Below, one piece after another: positions 22,653 to 45,487 of a stretch of 64,000 nucleotides of DNA. Position 1 is the first letter of the stretch. Every line of letters begins with the position of its first letter. The stretch lies in the IMG/VR virus record IMGVR_UViG_3300029305_011823. One strand, written 5' to 3'. The translations under genes and the position numbers were made by a program. The notes below the pieces were generated by a model that worked only from the letters and a program-made list of their open reading frames with translations, had not been told where the DNA came from and did not search any database. The DNA comes from a virus (lineage: Duplodnaviria > Caudoviricetes).

Positions 22653-24734
22653 TTACTCAACATCCGCCAAAGATTTCATAAATAATAAATCTAATGGTGA
22701 ATGTTTATGTTTCTTAAATGTTGTATGTGTATATAATTGTGATTTAAGATAATCGTAAGCTAAACTGTTTGTTATAGAAGGATTATCTGCTAAAGATGCG
22801 TGTAATCCTAATACAACATAATCTGTAAATAACTTACTGAAATCAGGTCTTTCAAGATAGTTATTAACATCTCTTACGAAAGATCTTAATATTGTTGCAG
22901 CATGAATTGACATTACATTGATTTTAGATTCAATTAATAATTCAATGAATCTTTGTTCCATCATATCTAATGTTGGATTCATACCTTTGAAATAAGAACC
23001 ATTTAAAAGTTTATCCATTTCTTTTAATGGTTTTGTTAATTCGTTGTTCTCTATATTAATTGTAAATAATGTTTCTTCTGATAATCTACTAAATGGAACT
23101 AGAATTTCATCATCTTCATTAGATTGGGTTTTCTTAATTATTGCATCTAAATCAGGATGGATGAATAATTCTTTTCCTTCGTTTTCAACTATCTCGTATA
23201 TCTCTTCATGATTTTTAATGTTTCTAACTTTTACAAATTGAACGAACTTATTGAAATCTGCATCATCTAATAATTCATCAATTTGAATTATATTATCAAA
23301 CACCATTTCGTATTGACTTAAATCAACATCTGTTTCATTGTCACTTAACATTTTAACTTGGTTAGCTTCAAGTTTAAATGATTTATCAAATGCTTCATTG
23401 AATTCTATAAGACAACTGTTAGTTGTATTAAGATGTTTTGTTGATAATATGTTTTGAGATAATGGTCTAGATATGATTGTAGATGCAAATATACCAACGT
23501 CCATACCTCTATTAACTGTTGCTAATGCTCCATAACATGTTTCACATACACCATCTTTACAAGCACATTTACCAGGATCTCTGAATAATAATGTTTTTCC
23601 TATTAAATGCGTATCTGTAACTTTTAATAATTTAAATTCTCTATGTCCTGGTAATCTATAATATCTACCAGCACACATTTCTAAGAATTTCTTATCATTA
23701 ATTGTTAACTTAACTGTATGAGGTGTATGACAATCTTTTGTTTTACTAATATAAGTTCCAACACAAGATAGTTTCATTAATAATGCCATATGTCCTGAAC
23801 TACCCATTTTCTCTTTATTAGCTATTAAAGATTTTCTTGAAGCTCCTGCATCTATATAATAGTTTGTGATATTACCAAATCCACCAACTATAAAGTTACT
23901 GTTTATTGGAATTGGAATTGTATTACCTAATAGGTCTGATTTAAGACCTCCACTAATACTAAACTCTCTTAACTGTTGATCCTTGATTCCTTCACCAGAT
24001 AATAACATTGGTTGGAAACAGTTATCTGTTGATTTTAATATCTCAATTTCTTCTTTCATTAAATCATTTAAATAATTTTCTATATCTTTTGGTTGCATAT
24101 CTTCTGGAATCTTTGTTCTTATTAATTCGTTAAATCTAGGATTCTCATTTGCAACTTTTATGAAACTATTCTCAAGATTTAATGTTATACCCATTAAGTT
24201 ATTAAAATCTTTTGGAATTTTATTCAATCTATATAATATATCGTGTAATACTGCATTTAATTCCATAAATCTTTCTTCTGTATCTGTAAACTCATCTCTA
24301 AATGGAATTATTATCTTTTCATCTATATACTTTTTAATTGTCTTATTCGAAATTTGTCTAGCATCAAATAGATAACTATCATCTAATTCAACATCAACTT
24401 CTAATTCTACAAATGCTCTTAAGAATATCATATTGACTAAAAGATGTCTAATTTCCATTTCTATATAATGTTTACTATCTTTGTTAAATGTTACTTTTAC
24501 TGGAAATTTTCTTATGTTTTCTATCTCAAATCCTTCTTCTAATATATAATATATATGACCATACATAGATTTAAACTCATCATAATCAGATATGATTTTG
24601 TTTAAATCAAACACTTTATTACCTCCATAAACTTCTTCTACTTCATTTAAAATTTTATCTTCAAATTCAATATATTCGTTGATATCAAAATTAAAATTTT
24701 CATTATAATTAAATCCTTCTTTATATATAGCCAT
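22653..24734 (-). CDS. Phage multisubunit RNA polymerase beta' C-terminal subunit (probably non-virion RNAP)
   Basis: CACKDGVCETCYG zinc site; bridge-helix-like ASRKSLI; trigger-loop-like RPLSQNILSTKH; lies downstream of a class-1 promoter. Confidence 0.85.
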   Translation of the reverse strand: MAIYKEGFNYNENFNFDINEYIEFEDKILNEVEEVYGGNKVFDLNKIISDYDEFKSMYGHIYYILEEGFEIENIRKFPVKVTFNKDSKHYIEMEIRHLLVNMIFLRAFVELEVDVELDDSYLFDARQISNKTIKKYIDEKIIIPFRDEFTDTEERFMELNAVLHDILYRLNKIPKDFNNLMGITLNLENSFIKVANENPRFNELIRTKIPEDMQPKDIENYLNDLMKEEIEILKSTDNCFQPMLLSGEGIKDQQLREFSISGGLKSDLLGNTIPIPINSNFIVGGFGNITNYYIDAGASRKSLIANKEKMGSSGHMALLMKLSCVGTYISKTKDCHTPHTVKLTINDKKFLEMCAGRYYRLPGHREFKLLKVTDTHLIGKTLLFRDPGKCACKDGVCETCYGALATVNRGMDVGIFASTIISRPLSQNILSTKHLNTTNSCLIEFNEAFDKSFKLEANQVKMLSDNETDVDLSQYEMVFDNIIQIDELLDDADFNKFVQFVKVRNIKNHEEIYEIVENEGKELFIHPDLDAIIKKTQSNEDDEILVPFSRLSEETLFTINIENNELTKPLKEMDKLLNGSYFKGMNPTLDMMEQRFIELLIESKINVMSIHAATILRSFVRDVNNYLERPDFSKLFTDYVVLGLHASLADNPSITNSLAYDYLKSQLYTHTTFKKHKHSPLDLLFMKSLADVE

Positions 24735-24974: not shown

Positions 24975-25036
24975 ATCGTTTCCTCCTTTAAAATAATATA
25001 TATTTATTGTTATGATATAAATAATATTTCACAAAT

Positions 25037-25068
25037 ATAATATATAATTGAAATATTACCTTTTTACA
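25037..25068 (-). promoter_or_regulatory. Class-1 (putative early) promoter
   Basis: 32-bp motif copy. Confidence 0.78.
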
Positions 25069-25077
25069 CAGAAAAAA

Positions 25078-25202
25078 TACGTCCATGCAAATGGACGTAT
25101 CTTCCTAACCGTATTCTAATGATTAACAACTTCTTTTTTCCACTCACCTTTTAGGAAGGTTCGTTTCCTTCTTAGATGCTATCGCATTAAGAAGTTGTTG
25201 GT
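25078..25202. ncRNA. Candidate structured RNA element (hairpin plus multibranch domain)
   Basis: atacgtccat/atggacgtat hairpin; aacaacttctt/aagaagttgtt stem enclosing the hairpins gaagg/ccttc and atgc/gcat. Confidence 0.45.
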
Positions 25203-25287
25203 ATGTTGATAATTAATTATATGGTTTCGCTGAAATTTAATTTATATAACAAGTAATGGATTCGGGAACGTAGAAAAAAATACTAGC

Positions 25288-26358
25288 CTAAGCTAGTAAA
25301 TCAATGTAACCTAAATGATGAGCCATTGATAACATACTACACCATAAATCTTTCTCCATTTCATTTTTATCATTTGGATAATTAAATCCAAAATCTTTAT
25401 GTCTTTTCTTTAATTTATCAAACATTTTATTTGTATCTTTTTGATTTATTTTTTCACCAAATTTAGAAAGTTGATCATTGAGATCATTATATTCACATCT
25501 ATTCTTTTTATTTCTTAATGTGGTATTTTTATTTATGTTTTGGATATAATTACATATATAACATATATGACCAAATATATCTTTGTACTTATACATTATA
25601 TTTGAATTTGTATTAATTTTTATAACAATATCTGAAACTATTTTAGCAAGATCAAATAATATATCTATATCTAATTGACGTATAATATAATTTTGATTAC
25701 ATTGTTCATTTAAACTTGTATTAAGGAAATATTGTGTTAATATAAAGTTAGTTATAAATCCTGAATAAATAGCGGGATCTATAGCTGATAAAGAACTATC
25801 CAACATAGTTAATAAACGTATAACTAATTCAGCAATTGTTTCATTATGATAAGTTTGAATTGTTTCCAATGCTAAATTGTACGTTTCTTCATCTAAATCA
25901 ATATTTTTAAATTTTAATGAATTTGAATAAGCAATATTCGTTTTCTTTGATGTTGAATCTGTATAAATTTCTGTAATAATTAAACTATAATCTTTCGTCC
26001 CATCTTTTCTATTATAAGGTTTTATTTTTGCTTTGAATTTCATAATACTATCGTTAAAGAATAATTCACTATACCAATTTTCAGGAACGTTTATATGAAT
26101 ATGATCATACATAAATCTATTATTAGAATGCACGTTTATAAATGTTATAGGAATACATCCTTTAAAAGCTTTATTTCCAAATTTACCTGTACAATATGCT
26201 GAATATTCATATTCTTCATTACCTTTTTCATATCTTTCTTTTAGATTATAACGTTGGTCGAAATGATTTATTGTTATTTCTCTATTATCAATAACTCCAT
26301 GATTATCACCTATGATATATCCTTTACCAGCAGTTGTAAAATTGTTAAATTCTGACAT
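25288..26358 (-). CDS. Hypothetical protein; N-terminal possible OB-fold, helical C-terminus
   Basis: AAGGAG RBS; beta-rich DHIHI...MKFKAKIKPY...DYSL segment (OB-fold is inference). Confidence 0.75.
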   Translation of the reverse strand: MSEFNNFTTAGKGYIIGDNHGVIDNREITINHFDQRYNLKERYEKGNEEYEYSAYCTGKFGNKAFKGCIPITFINVHSNNRFMYDHIHINVPENWYSELFFNDSIMKFKAKIKPYNRKDGTKDYSLIITEIYTDSTSKKTNIAYSNSLKFKNIDLDEETYNLALETIQTYHNETIAELVIRLLTMLDSSLSAIDPAIYSGFITNFILTQYFLNTSLNEQCNQNYIIRQLDIDILFDLAKIVSDIVIKINTNSNIMYKYKDIFGHICYICNYIQNINKNTTLRNKKNRCEYNDLNDQLSKFGEKINQKDTNKMFDKLKKRHKDFGFNYPNDKNEMEKDLWCSMLSMAHHLGYIDLLA

Positions 26359-26389
26359 ATTATCACTCTCCTTTATAAAATAAAATAAA

Positions 26390-26414
26390 GGATATGCTCA
26401 TTATGAGCATATCC
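26390..26414 (-). terminator. Intrinsic terminator between the repeat RNA and the 356-aa ORF
   Basis: ggatatgctca/tgagcatatcc 11-bp stem with a minus-strand U-rich tail. Confidence 0.8.
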
Positions 26415-26435
26415 AAATAAATAATTTATAGTTAA

Positions 26436-26607
26436 GTTGTGAAGTTAGCTATAGAGACCGTCCTCTATGAGCATACAGTATAGAGACCGTCCTCTATGAC
26501 TGTACATCAGTTCACAACAATTTGATTGAAGTTAGCTATAGAGACCGTCCTCTATGAGCATACAGTATAGAGACCGTCCTCTATGACTGTACATCAGTTC
26601 AACCAAA
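26436..26607 (-). ncRNA. Repeat RNA: two identical 75-nt units, four identical bulged hairpins (C-AUAGAG-GACGGU-CUCUAU)
   Basis: Exact direct repeat 26440-26514 = 26527-26601; 21-mer tatagagaccgtcctctatga at 26450, 26479, 26537 and 26566; different but paired closing stems. Confidence 0.8.
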
Positions 26608-26634
26608 CCTATTTAATCTTTTGTTATCACCTTT

Positions 26635-26666
26635 ATAATATATAATTGAAATTTTACCTTTTTACA
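26635..26666 (-). promoter_or_regulatory. Class-1 promoter driving the repeat RNA (with class-2 AACA-AAAGAT-TA at 26625-26614)
   Basis: 32-bp motif copy pointing into the repeats. Confidence 0.78.
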
Positions 26667-26703
26667 TTTATTTATAAAATTTAATATAGCTTAACAAATT
26701 AAT

Positions 26704-26808
26704 AAGTAAAATGATGAGAGCGGATATGCATCATCTTACTTAAACATCTTACCTCTGAAGTTATTGTTTTTACTTGTCCTATACCCTTTGATTGGGTATA
26801 GGACTTTA
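26704..26808 (+). ncRNA. Candidate small RNA with anti-AUG/anti-SD segment
   Basis: AACA-AATTAA-TA at 26693-26704; 5' stem; AAACAUCUUACCUC; terminator stem 26776-26804; the beta gene has its own AACA-N6-TA at 26831-26842. Confidence 0.45.
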
Positions 26809-26882
26809 AATATCGATTTTTACCTGATAAAACAATCCTGTAAGTATATTTGAAACTAAATAATGGAAAGGGTGAGTTGTTT

Positions 26883-29800
26883 ATGATTACTACTAATAGA
26901 TTACCGTTATTACAAAGATCAAGACTTAGACCAGTAATCAATTATGATATTAGAAATAAAAGATATGGTTCATTATTGATAATGAACACTATGGATTATT
27001 CTAATTTAAAAGGGAAATTAGGGACAGTTAATATAGAATATAATACTGTCATGACAATGTGCTATTCTAAAAGAAGAGAACAAATTAAGATAAAAAATAA
27101 AAGATATGTTGAAAATAGAGTTCAGACTAGACAAGAACATTACGACAAAATAAAAGCTGAACTTCCTATGTTAAATGGAATTAATGAAGGTAAACTTCAT
27201 ATGGGATTCAACTTATATTTTGATTTAATAAATGCTAATAAAATATTTGCTGAAAATTCTGGGATGTTAACTAAAATAGTAAAACCTAAAGAGTATTGGG
27301 ATTTTATAATGCGATATATGGAAGAATTACCTTTAGATAAATATCCTATGAAAACCATGCTTATAAACGTAGATGAGTTTGGAGCTAATATAGTTGCAGA
27401 TTTAAATAATAGAACTGATTCAGTAAACCCAATATCTTATTTATATTTATTAATGAAAAGAGAACCCGAAGAATTCTATAAACTAGGGGATATAGATATA
27501 ATAATAACATCAAAAATAGGATATGTAGTTAGAATAAATCCTGCTGAATGTAAAAGAACTATAGCTAAAGATGCTAACAAAGCTAATATAGCAGCTTTAT
27601 TTAGAAAGGAATTATTTAAATTATTAAATAGAACTGACCCTGAAGAAGGGAACATAAAATCTGAAGCAGATGAAATATTAGCAAAAAATAGAGAGGAAAT
27701 AACTCAATCGCTAATAGATAAATTTGTATTTGGTGCAGGTGGAGACCAAAGTATACCTGAAGATGTTAAGAATAAAATAGAGGTAGAAGTTGAAAAAGTG
27801 TTGGATAAGAACAATGAGGCAAGTCCAGCAGAAGTTAAAAAAGAAATAGAACAAAATGAAGACTTGATGAAAGATATACTAATGGCAGATAATAAAAAGA
27901 TAGCTAAATCTGCAGCATCTAGTAAAAGAGATGAATTGCTTAGAGAAAGACAAATGGCTCTTACTGTACAAGGTAAAACTATTGAAGAAGTCCTTCAAAT
28001 GAAATCAGAAGATATAAAAGTACCAGTAAATAATATAGAAGATAAAGTTGAAACATTTAATAAAAACATGACCGATGTAAGATTTAATAATATAGATAAA
28101 GCTTACGTGTCTGAATTAATGGAAAAAGATATAATATCGATGTTTACAATGATGAATGATAAATCTATAAAAGTATTCGTAAGATCTATAAATAAGGAAG
28201 ATTCATCTGATATATCTAACTATAAAGAAACATGGACTATTGAATTAGAAGATGAATTAAGAGTTAGACATAAATTAGTATTTGACGTGCCTAAAATAAT
28301 AGATGGTAGATTTATGTATCTTGGAGGTAATAGAAAATATATAAATAACCAACAGTTATTATTACCTATAGTTAAAGTTGAACCTGATACAGTTCAATTA
28401 GTTAGTAACTATAATAAAATATTCATAAGAAGATATGGAGAAAAAGTTTCTTCTGTAAATGAAAAACTTAAAAAAGCATTATCCGAAGATATAAAAGGGG
28501 TTAAAGTTCAAAGAGGTAAATTTGATACCGAAAATAAAAGTTATGTTACTTCTATTGATTATGATGACTTAGCTAAAATATTTAAAGAGATAAATGCTAA
28601 CGGAACAAGAGTTATATTCGACCAAAAAGAAATACGTAGTATCTTAGTAGGAGCAAATATAAAAGGATTAGAAGCAAAATTAGATAAAGAATTATTACCT
28701 TTAGCTGTTAAAGGTAATACGTATTATTGTGTCGATTTAAACAAAGATGAAGTAGTTACAATAAATCAACAAGGTAAAACTGGATCTACTGGTAAAGGAA
28801 TAATAGACTTTATATTATCTTTATCAAAAGAATTAGAATCTAAAGTGGGAGAACAATCTGCAGGTAAGAAATACATGTATAATAGAGCAACTATAATGAG
28901 TAAACAAGTTCCTATAGTTTTATTATTATGTTATTTTGAAGGTATAGACGGATTTTTAAAAAGAGCAAATATAGATCATTATTTCTCTGATACTAGACCT
29001 AGATTAGCACCTAATGAAGGCTGCATACAATTCCAAGACGGATTCTTAATATTCACTAATAAACCTATGGCGACATCATTATTGATGAATGGATTTATAG
29101 ACATACCAACTAAGAATTATAATTATGCCGATTTAAATGATAAATTTGTTTATCAATCAATATTTGAAACTATGTTTGGTAGAAGAAATATAGCAAATGC
29201 ATTTGATAACTTCTTAGATAACTTTATAGATCCAATGACGTTAGATGTATTAAGAAGATTATCATTACCAACTGATTTAACTGGTATGATTTTATATGGA
29301 AATGAGTTATTAGTAGATAACCAATATACACATGAAATAACAGTATCTAGAATTAGATGTTCTGAAGTAATAAATGCTATAATTTATAAAAACGTAGCTA
29401 AAGCTTACGAAAAATATAAAGAGACTGCTAACTTTAATAACCCTGTTAAAATAAGTATGAAGAAAGATGCTATAATAAAAGAAATAGTTATGCAACAGAC
29501 AGTGGAAGATTATTCTGAGCTTAATCCTATATATGAACAACAAAACTTAAGAAAATGCTTAAGAAAAGGACCTAGTGGTTGTAACTTAGCACAAGCTTAT
29601 AATGAAACACAAAGATCTTTCCACCCTGGTATGACTGGACTATTTACTTTATCATCTTCTCCAGATGCTAACGTTGGGGTAAATAGATTCTTAACATTAG
29701 AACCACCTATAACAGATCCTCGTGGATTTATAGATAATAAAGCATTACAAGGTAAAGTTAATGAATATACCGATGCTAACTTATTTGGTGTTGCAGAATT

Positions 29801-31025
29801 ATTAACTACAGGTTGTGCTTCAGGTGATGACAGTGTAAGGGTAACAATGTCATGTAGACAATCAACACACTGTGTTGCTGTTGCTAAAGGATCACCTGTT
29901 TTAGTATCTAATGGTGCTGAAAGGGTTATGCCTTATCATTGTACTAAAGACTGGGTATTTGTTGCACAAGATGATGGTATAGTAAAAGAATATGATGAGA
30001 AATTAGGCTTACTTATAGTTGAATATGAAAATGGAGAACATGACGCTGTTGATATAAATAGAATAGCTAAAAATGGTGCTGGTGGATTCCATGTTGCTAA
30101 ACATATGAACTGTAATTATAAGAAAGGTGATAAATTTAAAAAGAACGATATACTAGCATATGAAGATAAATTCTTTAGCCAAAACTCAGCATTTGGTAAT
30201 AGATTTAACGTTGGTTCATTACAAAAAGTTGCATTACTTTCTTCATCATTAACATATGAAGATAGTTCTTATATAAGTAAGAAATTATCTAGAGAAATGG
30301 CTACTGAAGTTGTTATGCAAAAACAAGCCGTATTAGGACCAAATACAAACGTAGACTATATGATAAAAATAGGAGAAAAAGTACAAAATGGTGATGAACT
30401 TATAAGATTTGAAAAATCTTTCAATGAAGAAACTATCAACCAATTATTATTTAATGTTGGGGATGAATATAAAGAAGATATCATAATGAGTGGTAAAGAT
30501 AAAGTTAAATCTAAGTACTCAGGAGTTATAGAAGATATCAAAGTATATTGTACAGTGGAATTAGATGAACTATCTCCATCATTAAGACAAATAGTTTCTC
30601 AATATTATAATAAAATAAACTCTAAGAAAAAATTATTAGAAAAATACGATAAGAATGGTTCAGTTGTTAAATGTAATATGTTATTCAATGAACCTACTGG
30701 AAAAGTAGAACCTAATGGTAATGGTGTATTTAGAGGTGCTAAAGTTAATGAAGGTGTTATAATAGAATTCTATATTAAAGTTCATGATGAAGTTGGTATA
30801 GGAGATAAAATAGTTTTCTTCAGTGCCTTAAAGAGTATAGTAGGTAGTGTTATACCAGAAGGTCAAGAAGCATATACATTATTTAGACCAGAAGAAGGAA
30901 TAGATGCTGTATTAAGTTGTAACTCATTAATAGCTAGGGGTGTTACTTCTGCTCCAAAAGCAATAATGGGTAATAAACTAATGGTTGAATTAAGTAGAAA
31001 GCTTAAAGAAATTTATGATAAATAA
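26883..31025 (+). CDS. Phage multisubunit RNA polymerase beta subunit (probably virion RNAP)
   Basis: Beta-like motifs SSPDANVGVNRFL, RVTMSCRQSTH, TYEDS, GDKIVFFSALKSIV and DAVLSCNSLIARG; long N-terminal extension; RBS favours ATG at 26883. Confidence 0.88.
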   Translation: MITTNRLPLLQRSRLRPVINYDIRNKRYGSLLIMNTMDYSNLKGKLGTVNIEYNTVMTMCYSKRREQIKIKNKRYVENRVQTRQEHYDKIKAELPMLNGINEGKLHMGFNLYFDLINANKIFAENSGMLTKIVKPKEYWDFIMRYMEELPLDKYPMKTMLINVDEFGANIVADLNNRTDSVNPISYLYLLMKREPEEFYKLGDIDIIITSKIGYVVRINPAECKRTIAKDANKANIAALFRKELFKLLNRTDPEEGNIKSEADEILAKNREEITQSLIDKFVFGAGGDQSIPEDVKNKIEVEVEKVLDKNNEASPAEVKKEIEQNEDLMKDILMADNKKIAKSAASSKRDELLRERQMALTVQGKTIEEVLQMKSEDIKVPVNNIEDKVETFNKNMTDVRFNNIDKAYVSELMEKDIISMFTMMNDKSIKVFVRSINKEDSSDISNYKETWTIELEDELRVRHKLVFDVPKIIDGRFMYLGGNRKYINNQQLLLPIVKVEPDTVQLVSNYNKIFIRRYGEKVSSVNEKLKKALSEDIKGVKVQRGKFDTENKSYVTSIDYDDLAKIFKEINANGTRVIFDQKEIRSILVGANIKGLEAKLDKELLPLAVKGNTYYCVDLNKDEVVTINQQGKTGSTGKGIIDFILSLSKELESKVGEQSAGKKYMYNRATIMSKQVPIVLLLCYFEGIDGFLKRANIDHYFSDTRPRLAPNEGCIQFQDGFLIFTNKPMATSLLMNGFIDIPTKNYNYADLNDKFVYQSIFETMFGRRNIANAFDNFLDNFIDPMTLDVLRRLSLPTDLTGMILYGNELLVDNQYTHEITVSRIRCSEVINAIIYKNVAKAYEKYKETANFNNPVKISMKKDAIIKEIVMQQTVEDYSELNPIYEQQNLRKCLRKGPSGCNLAQAYNETQRSFHPGMTGLFTLSSSPDANVGVNRFLTLEPPITDPRGFIDNKALQGKVNEYTDANLFGVAELLTTGCASGDDSVRVTMSCRQSTHCVAVAKGSPVLVSNGAERVMPYHCTKDWVFVAQDDGIVKEYDEKLGLLIVEYENGEHDAVDINRIAKNGAGGFHVAKHMNCNYKKGDKFKKNDILAYEDKFFSQNSAFGNRFNVGSLQKVALLSSSLTYEDSSYISKKLSREMATEVVMQKQAVLGPNTNVDYMIKIGEKVQNGDELIRFEKSFNEETINQLLFNVGDEYKEDIIMSGKDKVKSKYSGVIEDIKVYCTVELDELSPSLRQIVSQYYNKINSKKKLLEKYDKNGSVVKCNMLFNEPTGKVEPNGNGVFRGAKVNEGVIIEFYIKVHDEVGIGDKIVFFSALKSIVGSVIPEGQEAYTLFRPEEGIDAVLSCNSLIARGVTSAPKAIMGNKLMVELSRKLKEIYDK

Positions 31026-32790: not shown

Positions 32791-32832
32791 AAATTTGTAC
32801 CCCCTGATTTATTATATTTTTATTTCACATAT

Positions 32833-32864
32833 ATAATATAGCATTAAAATATTACCTTTTTACA
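32833..32864 (-). promoter_or_regulatory. Class-1 (putative early) promoter
   Basis: 32-bp motif copy. Confidence 0.72.
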
Positions 32865-45408: not shown

Positions 45409-45455
45409 ATACAATTACCTCCAATAATTTTATATTTTTATTTTACTTCACCTAT

Positions 45456-45487
45456 ATAATATAGCATTGAAATTTCACCTTTTTACA
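45456..45487 (-). promoter_or_regulatory. Class-1 (putative early) promoter
   Basis: 32-bp motif copy. Confidence 0.75.

Follow-up and report, generated by a model that had tools for sequence, protein, structure and literature searches.

Does a tandemly repeated RNA that stands ahead of an orphan protein gene in an uncultured phage belong to that gene, and if so, in what capacity? The question is raised by the minus strand of a 64,000-nucleotide (nt) stretch of Caudoviricetes DNA (IMG/VR record IMGVR_UViG_3300029305_011823; the whole stretch is referred to here as the window), in which two RNA units lie between a promoter and an intrinsic terminator and are followed by an open reading frame (ORF) of 356 amino acids. 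A preliminary description, made from the letters alone, had likened this arrangement to type III toxin-antitoxin (TA) loci and had proposed a new RNA-protein pair, whether a TA module, an attenuator, or a ribonucleoprotein (RNP). The existence of such a pair is supported by a conserved layout and by co-inheritance of the two partners: AR9-like jumbo phages of the gut carry the locus as a self-contained RNA-protein cassette, at different places in their genomes. Its function can be read tentatively as that of an effector restrained by its RNA, in the manner of type III TA systems or of the AbiF-RCd22 pair.

Layout of the cassette and structure of its RNA

Along the minus strand, the cassette consists of an early promoter, the two RNA units, a terminator, a Shine-Dalgarno (SD) sequence, the 356-amino-acid ORF, and a terminator of the ORF's own (Table 1). 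All of the elements of the order promoter, tandem RNA repeats, terminator, and ORF were found where they had been described, including the terminator at the end of the ORF, and this order is conserved in relatives. The promoter and terminator assignments are based on motifs. The two minus-strand terminator hairpins (26414-26390 and 25298-25281) compare with 0.2 expected, and a transcript ending at the first of them would be a noncoding RNA of ~245 nt. An equivalent terminator is present at the same place in all relatives, and the SD sequence is likewise kept at the same place in all loci.

Table 1. Coordinates of the cassette elements and of the genes on either side of the cassette
Feature	Position	Strand	Remarks
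Early-type promoter (predicted)	26629..26662	(-)	29-mer 26634-26662; core TATATATTAT 26644-26635; 6-nt spacer; predicted start G26628
Late-type promoter-like motif AACA-N6-TA	26614..26625	(-)	in conserved 5' leader (GATAACAAAAGATTAAATA); predicted start A26614
RNA unit 1, three-way junction	26519..26609	(-)	P1 ~12 bp with G-U pairs; H1 core 26567-26584; H2 core 26538-26555; both loops GACGGU
RNA unit 2	26436..26518	(-)	interior same as unit 1; hairpin cores 26480-26497, 26451-26468
Intrinsic terminator (predicted)	26380..26414	(-)	11-bp stem 26414-26390 (GGAUAUGCUCA-UAA-UGAGCAUAUCC), then U-rich tract
Shine-Dalgarno sequence (AAGGAGAG)	26366..26373	(-)	right after terminator U-tract; read from sequence
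356-amino-acid ORF	25288..26358	(-)	N-rich tail, putative OB-fold, helical domain
Intrinsic terminator of the ORF (predicted)	25274..25298	(-)	hairpin across stop codon, then T7
ORF	22653-24734	(-)	match to phrog_3015; phage multisubunit RNA polymerase piece
ORF, RNA polymerase beta-like	26886-31025	(+)	match to phrog_3148; phage multisubunit RNA polymerase piece

The repeat (26440-26601) has a period of 87 nt, 1.9 copies, and 100% identity and is the top-scoring repeat of the window. Each 87-nt unit is composed of a closing stem (P1) and two hairpins (H1 and H2) with G-rich loops; both hairpins are built on one 18-nt core, ATAGAGGACGGTCTCTAT, of which there are four copies in the repeat region and none elsewhere in the window (0.01 expected by chance). 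The RNA region folds much better than its shuffles (z = -6.5). The outer part of P1 in unit 2 is unlike that in unit 1 and yet is internally complementary (GUUGUGAA/UUCACAAC).

An alignment of 18 units, taken from the window and 12 other loci, had 95.7% of its cells paired and contained two-sided changes at 14 of 27 pairs, spread over all three helices. The covariation score of 0.315, compared with 0.152 in shuffles, was reached by none of 500 shuffles, and controls with slid partners scored at most 0.071; the outcome was much the same for 15 more closely related units. Of the three helices, P1 stands out most clearly: its sequence varies among the units of one locus as well as among loci while complementarity is kept (UUGAA/UUCAA, GUGAA/UUCAC, ACGGA/UCCGU, GUAAU/AUUAC, ACAAU/AUUGU, and GUAGA/UCUAC). 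A covariance model scored unit 2 at 109 bits on the sense (minus) strand versus 19.6 bits on the plus strand. Because of this difference and of the G-U pairs, the constraint is taken to act on the minus-strand RNA and not on a DNA palindrome; the same two observations speak against the idea that the inverted repeats are DNA operators or iterons, a minor variant of the view, considered below, that RNA and protein gene are unrelated.

The best-conserved letters of the RNA are those of the junction strands GAUGUA, UAU, and GCUAA, which are invariant or nearly so. The hairpin loops vary from locus to locus: those loci with two to four hairpins have one shared 6-nt loop each, with five variants between loci (GACGGU, GACGGA, GGCAGG, GGCGGU, and GGUGGA), and three further variants occur in incomplete contigs. 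Such concerted change would be accounted for by a binder that is symmetric (a dimer), by contact between the loops, or by gene conversion. The loop differs even among related loci (numbered here with the prefix L) that encode the identical protein P0006, being GACGGU in L005 and L006 versus GACGGA in L007 and L008.

No Rfam family matched the window at gathering thresholds. In E-value mode, ncr1241 was considered as an identity for the RNA and was rejected, its sub-threshold match covering only the terminator hairpin. The RNA core pattern had only two chance matches without hairpins in 185,579 bacterial and archaeal species genomes (in Clostridium sardiniense and in a Sulfurimonas metagenome-assembled genome), returned the three known contigs plus one chance match and nothing more from IMG/VR, and returned only the same 98-kb contig (described below) from JGI metagenomes.

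Co-inheritance of the RNA with the protein gene

The preliminary description had left it to the homologues of the protein to decide whether the hairpins belong with the gene. A word-index search with the 356-amino-acid protein returned 10 close homologues, and an exhaustive profile search found 25 family representatives among 1.84 billion proteins. Gut metagenome assemblies in ENA and Logan supplied relatives of the cassette (one contig is named for pig gut), as did three IMG/VR contigs of 98-228 kb. Wherever the DNA upstream of a homologue could be read, the gene is preceded by the same RNA, terminator, and SD sequence, with 93-109 nt between the last hairpin and the ATG, and among these loci no protein gene without the RNA was seen. 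The linkage persists at protein identities of 33% (L026), 30% (L017), and 28% (L036) and is recognisable at 22% (L035); the hairpin of L036 reads CAGGG-GGUAGG-CUCUG and is accompanied by CGCUAAC. In seven independent Logan contigs, assembled from different samples, the sequence stops 101-121 nt before the ATG, as it would if an exact repeat exceeding the assembler's k-mer lay at that point. Scans of IMG/VR with the distant homologues P0028, P0019, and P0030 returned nothing.

The cassette occurs in at least six different neighbourhoods. In the window and in L011 it lies between RNA polymerase (RNAP) genes, both bordering genes of the window being phage RNAP beta/beta'-like subunits, as had been described. 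The other settings are beside a GH77-containing block, after an 83-amino-acid ORF, after a peptidase_S51-like gene, before a TSCPD gene, and before a head-tail joining gene; in a relative whose RNAP beta is 73% identical, neither the cassette nor a beta'-like gene stands beside RNAP beta. The RNAP neighbourhood is therefore incidental, because relatives bear the cassette elsewhere and the 73%-identical RNAP beta occurs without it, and the variety of neighbourhoods indicates that the cassette travels as a unit, with its promoter included in most contexts.

Two RNA units are present in the window and in L001, L005, L014, L015, and L026. The single-unit loci L006, L016, and L009 look as if the 5' half of unit 1 had been joined to the 3' half of unit 2. 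In two pairs of otherwise near-identical loci (L005 and L006, L015 and L016), the difference amounts to precisely one 87-nt unit. Such loci could have arisen by genuine unequal recombination or by collapse during assembly; unit copy numbers taken from short-read assemblies are uncertain, as two units may collapse into one.

Genome-wide copy counts of the RNA were taken from the relatives' contigs (98-228 kb). A covariance-model search of these whole contigs found the RNA only ahead of this gene family, with two extras: a second module and an orphan unit. The second module is on a 98-kb IMG/VR contig that carries two complete modules, L014 and L026, each with the same early-promoter box ahead of it. 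The window protein is matched at 60% identity by the protein of L014 and at 33% by that of L026, and the hairpins of the two modules differ in stem as well as loop (AUAGAG-GGCAGG-CUCUAU versus GCAGAG-GGUGGA-CUCUGU). The orphan unit (L025:1420-1740, the same as L027; on 228- and 203-kb IMG/VR contigs, each of which also has an intact module) is single and highly diverged; its loops are AU-rich and 9 nt long, changes in its stems are compensated, and it has a promoter-like box, a terminator, and an SD sequence. It is followed only by a 6-codon ORF (MENNIN, then stop), with no remnant of the protein gene. Either the RNA can matter alone or this copy is merely decaying.

These loci bear on whether RNA and protein gene could be unrelated neighbours, in which case an independent phage small RNA (sRNA) would engage a host factor as a decoy or sponge, and the ORF would only take advantage of read-through. 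Such an arrangement would fit an RNA that has its own promoter and terminator and that exists at one locus without the gene. We consider it very unlikely given co-inheritance in at least six neighbourhoods at fixed spacing and down to 22-33% protein identity, and given that the two co-resident modules pair diverged RNAs with diverged proteins.

A tandem small-molecule riboswitch is the least likely of the explanations considered. Each three-way junction would be an aptamer, its loops perhaps in contact as in the purine and guanidine-II riboswitches, and would control the terminator. The classic Bacillota riboswitch order of aptamer-like fold, terminator, and gene is present, the junction nucleotides are the most conserved part of the RNA, and each unit has a sub-threshold match (19.8 bits, with a gathering score of 32) to Guanidine-II/mini-ykkC (RF01068), which it resembles in having two small near-identical hairpins with ACGG-type loops a short distance apart. 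Unlike in Guanidine-II, the ACGR loops are not kept: relatives have GGCAGG, GGCGGU, GGUGGA, GGAGGU, and GGUAGG, with the loop cores GCAG, GCGG, GUGG, GAGG, and GUAG, and the orphan unit has its 9-nt AU-rich loops. The cassette hairpins are, moreover, closed into a three-way junction by P1, and the downstream gene is no guanidine transporter or carboxylase. Identity with Guanidine-II was ruled out on the loss of the ACGR tetraloops in relatives and on the score below the gathering threshold. Against a riboswitch of any kind stand the lack of a conserved antiterminator overlapping P1 or the terminator, a downstream gene that always belongs to one orphan family, the absence of the RNA from the 185,579 bacterial and archaeal species genomes, and the persistence of a unit without a downstream gene.

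Transcription signals and the encoded protein

In phage AR9, the early promoter consensus, recognized by the virion RNAP, has been experimentally defined as AAATATATATTAT-(6N)-G+1, and the late consensus is AACA-(6N)-TA/G (PMC5312081). The 29-mer at the head of the cassette includes TATATATTAT-N6-G, the core of the early consensus. There are five copies of the 29-mer in the window, all on the minus strand, versus 0 expected, and the exact TATATATTAT-N6-G core occurs nine times on the minus strand and not at all on the plus strand. The same early promoter also heads the cassette in L001, L009, L011, L014, and L026. The 29-nt extended box (AAAAGGTAAWATTTCAATTATATATTATA; 828-856, 25036-25064, 26634-26662, 32832-32860, and 45455-45483, all minus strand) is far longer than the published AR9 early consensus and is found on one strand only. 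The late-type motif is present in the leader of every locus and fits the AR9 late consensus; it has a low information content and occurs in the window at about chance frequency (64 on the minus strand and 42 on the plus strand), which makes it weak evidence.

The claim that the ORF has no separate promoter is borne out by a motif scan, in which neither an early- nor a late-type motif was found between the first terminator and the ATG (26358), which lies only 31 nt past the terminator stem. A loose early-like TATAAATTAT-N6-G at 26430 was rejected as a promoter for the ORF, having one mismatch and a start that would fall within the 5' arm of the terminator. With this layout the protein would be made only from read-through transcripts and the RNA would be in large excess, because most transcripts would stop at the terminator.

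Some of these features would also suit an autoregulatory attenuator, in which the RNA is a mere 5' leader and the protein, with its real job elsewhere (for example, on phage or host nucleic acid), binds its own nascent hairpins and so tunes termination or translation. This explanation, which we regard as unlikely, has on its side that RNA, terminator, and SD sequence stand at fixed spacing right upstream of the gene at every locus and that the gene lacks a promoter of its own. In the window, the linker between the hairpins (UAUGCUCAUA) recurs in the 5' arm of the terminator, so that the 3' arm could pair with the leader instead; and in the AbiF-RCd22 system, RCd22 also reduces abiF expression at the transcriptional level (PMC12373285). 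The similarity between linker and terminator is good only in the window and L001, however, is partial (7 bp, a mismatch, and 2 bp) in L011, L005, and L009, and is absent in L014, L026, L002, and L017. An antiterminator formed through the 10-mer common to the linker and the terminator arm was rejected because the loci do not conserve it, and it lends the attenuator explanation no more than slight support. The 3' strand of P1 is not complementary to the terminator, from which it is separated by an AU-rich spacer of 20-35 nt. One unit survives with a promoter and terminator and without the gene, and exact tandem duplication of a whole aptamer-like unit is unneeded for feedback.

The 356-amino-acid protein was modelled at full length with AlphaFold2 (pLDDT 67, pTM 0.72), which predicted a disordered N-rich tail (residues 1-35), a beta-barrel (36-139), and a helical domain (~155-356). 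In VIA-align, the modelled barrel aligned with the OB domains of MCM-N, RPA, and SSB and with the anticodon-binding OB domains of AspRS/AsnRS (Z 5.6-7.3, root mean square deviation of ~3-4 A over 80-90 residues), and OB-folds made up nearly all of the best 50 rows. The OB part has a pLDDT of ~55-80, and Foldseek on the model gave no match at E <= 0.001. An OB-fold-like N terminus had been suspected from the sequence, and the model supports it at moderate strength, residues 36-139 probably forming an OB-fold of the nucleic-acid-binding type. The residues that are invariant in 28 family members (R36, N75, D85, H86, and Y115) are all in or at the edge of this domain.

The helical domain, when modelled alone from 28 sequences, reached a pLDDT of 89.8 and a pTM of 0.89. 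The best structural match to it in Foldseek PDB, VIA-wide, ESM Atlas, and BFVD searches was DdrC (Z 6.7), followed by a match at 4.5, with all TM values below 0.31, and the modelled domain is treated here as lacking a recognisable structural relative. The whole protein had no match in Pfam-A (E <= 0.01), PHROG, NCBIfam, PDB sequence-profile, or ESM Atlas feature searches, and four family members had none among the PADLOC families at E <= 1, in keeping with the initial view that the protein is unrelated to ToxN and to HEPN proteins. As a candidate HEPN motif, R81-x4-H86, the sole RxxxxH stretch, resembles Rx4-6H; it was rejected, as R81 is not conserved and lies in the beta-barrel. Prediction of a homodimer (two copies, alignment A2) gave a median score of 0.38, with the mark at 0.42.

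RNA and protein might instead be parts of a stable RNP. As a cofactor, a four-hairpin scaffold, the RNA would then lend the protein structure or specificity, and the complex rather than the free protein would be active, for instance on host or competitor nucleic acids or in sequestering a host factor. Co-inheritance across neighbourhoods would be expected of such a complex; the hairpins change in concert, with one loop sequence per locus and five variants among the multi-hairpin loci; the near-invariant junction strands resemble a folded core; and the early and late promoter motifs suggest that the RNA persists over the whole course of infection. However, a terminator holding the protein at levels far under those of the RNA would be unusual for a stoichiometric RNP, an orphan RNA without the protein implies that the RNA matters alone or is decaying, and neither RNA nor protein was recognised to have a feature suggestive of catalysis or of a guide. 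On balance, we doubt this explanation.

Comparable systems, carrier phages, and possible function

In ToxIN-type loci, a promoter, tandem RNA repeats, a terminator, and a protein gene follow one another, and the products are an experimentally demonstrated toxin/RNA-antitoxin pair. The cassette shares with ToxIN, CptIN, and TenpIN the tandem direct repeats just upstream of the gene, the terminator between them, and the single upstream promoter, along with a probable excess of RNA if the predicted signals operate. Co-resident paralogous modules with distinct repeats and an orphan RNA copy are further points of likeness. The cassette protein is about twice the size of the toxins in these systems and combines a putative OB-fold with an orphan helical domain, and the RNA units are 87 nt long, present in one or two copies, and closed by their own stem, in contrast to the ~34-45-nt units, 2-5.5 copies, and pseudoknots of the known systems. 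No ToxN, CptN, or TenpN family was matched in Pfam-A at E <= 0.01 or in PADLOC at E <= 1. There was no ToxN-type chain among the VIA or Foldseek matches listed, an absence that leaves such a fold possible.

In the lambda N/nut and HK022 put systems, too, hairpin RNA is transcribed from an early promoter ahead of a terminator, and the gene of a small regulator follows. The cassette is similar in that its hairpin RNA lies between an early promoter and a terminator and upstream of a protein gene. It differs in that its RNA, in the 98-228-kb contigs of relatives, is found only before this gene family or its remnant and not before other operons.

A close parallel in layout and size is AbiF-RCd22 of the Clostridioides difficile phi027 prophage, in which two copies of the abiF motif and a terminator precede an Abi_2 gene without its own promoter; this is experimentally a toxin/RNA-antitoxin pair, in which the short RNA predominates and read-through makes the mRNA (PMC12373285). 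The cassette likewise has one promoter, a noncoding RNA with two motif copies, a terminator, and a promoterless gene for a protein of ~300-350 amino acids, and it is also phage borne in a gut Bacillota setting. Unlike AbiF, the cassette protein has no Abi_2 (PF07751) or HEPN match, and the abiF RNA motif (RF03085) had no match at the gathering score over the window or at E <= 10 over 26340-26700. The units of the cassette are 87-nt three-way junctions with twin hairpins, and the carrier is an AR9-like jumbo phage with promoters for its own RNAPs. Because each defining sequence test fails, the cassette is not a ToxN/CptN/TenpN system, an Abi_2 system, an abiF RNA, or a Guanidine-II riboswitch. 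Its genetic architecture is known, but the RNA family, the protein family, and the kind of carrier in which it appears are new, and a literature search found no description of such a module in jumbo phages.

The carrier is an AT-rich (29% G+C in the 64-kb window) AR9/PBS1-like jumbo phage. The best tblastn relatives of its RNAP beta-like ORF, at only 31-36% identity, are in Listeria phage LPJP1, Staphylococcus S6-like phages, and Bacillus phage PBS1, which are jumbo phages of the uracil-DNA type that infect Bacillota. In the window, a single unbroken frame of 1,379 amino acids makes up the RNAP beta-like gene; in PBS1 and in several jumbo phages of Staphylococcus, the related sequence is split into two to four matching pieces by HNH/homing-endonuclease genes. 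Among 50,697 phage records, neither the cassette region (megablast) nor the 356-amino-acid protein (tblastn) had a match. The window contains no tRNA or tmRNA.

Two structured stretches near the cassette are candidate sRNAs. One is a noncoding stretch of ~125 nt on the minus strand (25068-25200), between the terminator of the 356-amino-acid ORF and the next early promoter (25036-25064), which starts at a late-type AACA-N6-TA (25199) and finishes with a strong hairpin and T-run (fold z = -3.97). The other, on the opposite strand between the cassette and the RNAP beta gene, is a 109-nt stretch (26704-26812, plus strand; fold z = -5.49) with an 11-bp hairpin at ~26776-26804 and an AACA-N6-TA upstream at 26693; a second AACA-N6-TA, at 26831, precedes the RNAP beta gene.

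What, then, might the cassette do? An RNA-restrained effector is the reading to which we assign the highest weight, at a rough probability of 0.4. The protein would use its OB-fold to bind the twin hairpins of the RNA with which it is paired, as the fold itself, the linkage, and the co-diverging paralogues suggest, and the RNA would hold the protein inactive, by analogy with ToxI for ToxN and RCd22 for AbiF, perhaps also feeding back on read-through. The protein would be released once RNA synthesis drops or the RNA is degraded. In a lytic jumbo phage, the most plausible roles of such a device would be inter-phage competition, exclusion, or selfish persistence of the cassette. This reading is favored by an RNA that is able to stand alone, paired with a protein never seen without its RNA, and by the coexistence of two diverged RNA-protein pairs in one genome.

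Several considerations weigh against it. The protein has no similarity to ToxN/CptN/TenpN, Abi_2, or HEPN proteins, and the RNA has only about two units of 87 nt, compared with 2-5.5 units of ~34-45 nt in known type III antitoxins; single-unit loci also exist, which may be collapsed assemblies. The carrier is a lytic-type jumbo phage, and the logic of a TA system is clearer in a host, plasmid, or prophage. Linkage, spacing, and an orphan RNA are equally expected for a cis-regulatory leader. Restraint is proposed by analogy, with toxicity, RNase activity, and RNA binding being putative properties of the protein, and the scheme presumes that phage RNAPs stop at the predicted terminator. A broader formulation is correspondingly more doubtful than RNA restraint itself: that the cassette represents a class of RNA-protein conflict modules of lytic jumbo phages, in which a new-fold OB effector would be silenced by a twin-hairpin RNA made from early and late promoters. 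Such modules would move between genomes, their hairpins diversifying for orthogonality, would serve phage-phage competition or selfish addiction, and would constitute a fourth, structurally unrelated lineage of type III-like TA systems.

To our knowledge, type III-like RNA antitoxins come from few protein lineages (ToxN, CptN, TenpN, and, recently, AbiF), all in hosts, plasmids, and prophages. The cassette has a type III-like layout with an RNA fold and a protein unrelated to theirs, and its carriers are uncultured jumbo phages of the gut that transcribe with polymerases of their own. Even if the RNA were only an autoregulatory leader or part of an RNP, the locus would add an RNA family that is new and shows strong covariation, along with a helical domain, modelled at high confidence, for which no structural relative is apparent. 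If the RNA does restrain the protein, type III logic would prove to operate with a new protein fold and in virulent giant phages as well, and the cassette would offer a compact orthogonal RNA-protein recognition pair, of which two diverged versions already occur in one genome, as well as a handle on phage-phage conflict in the gut.

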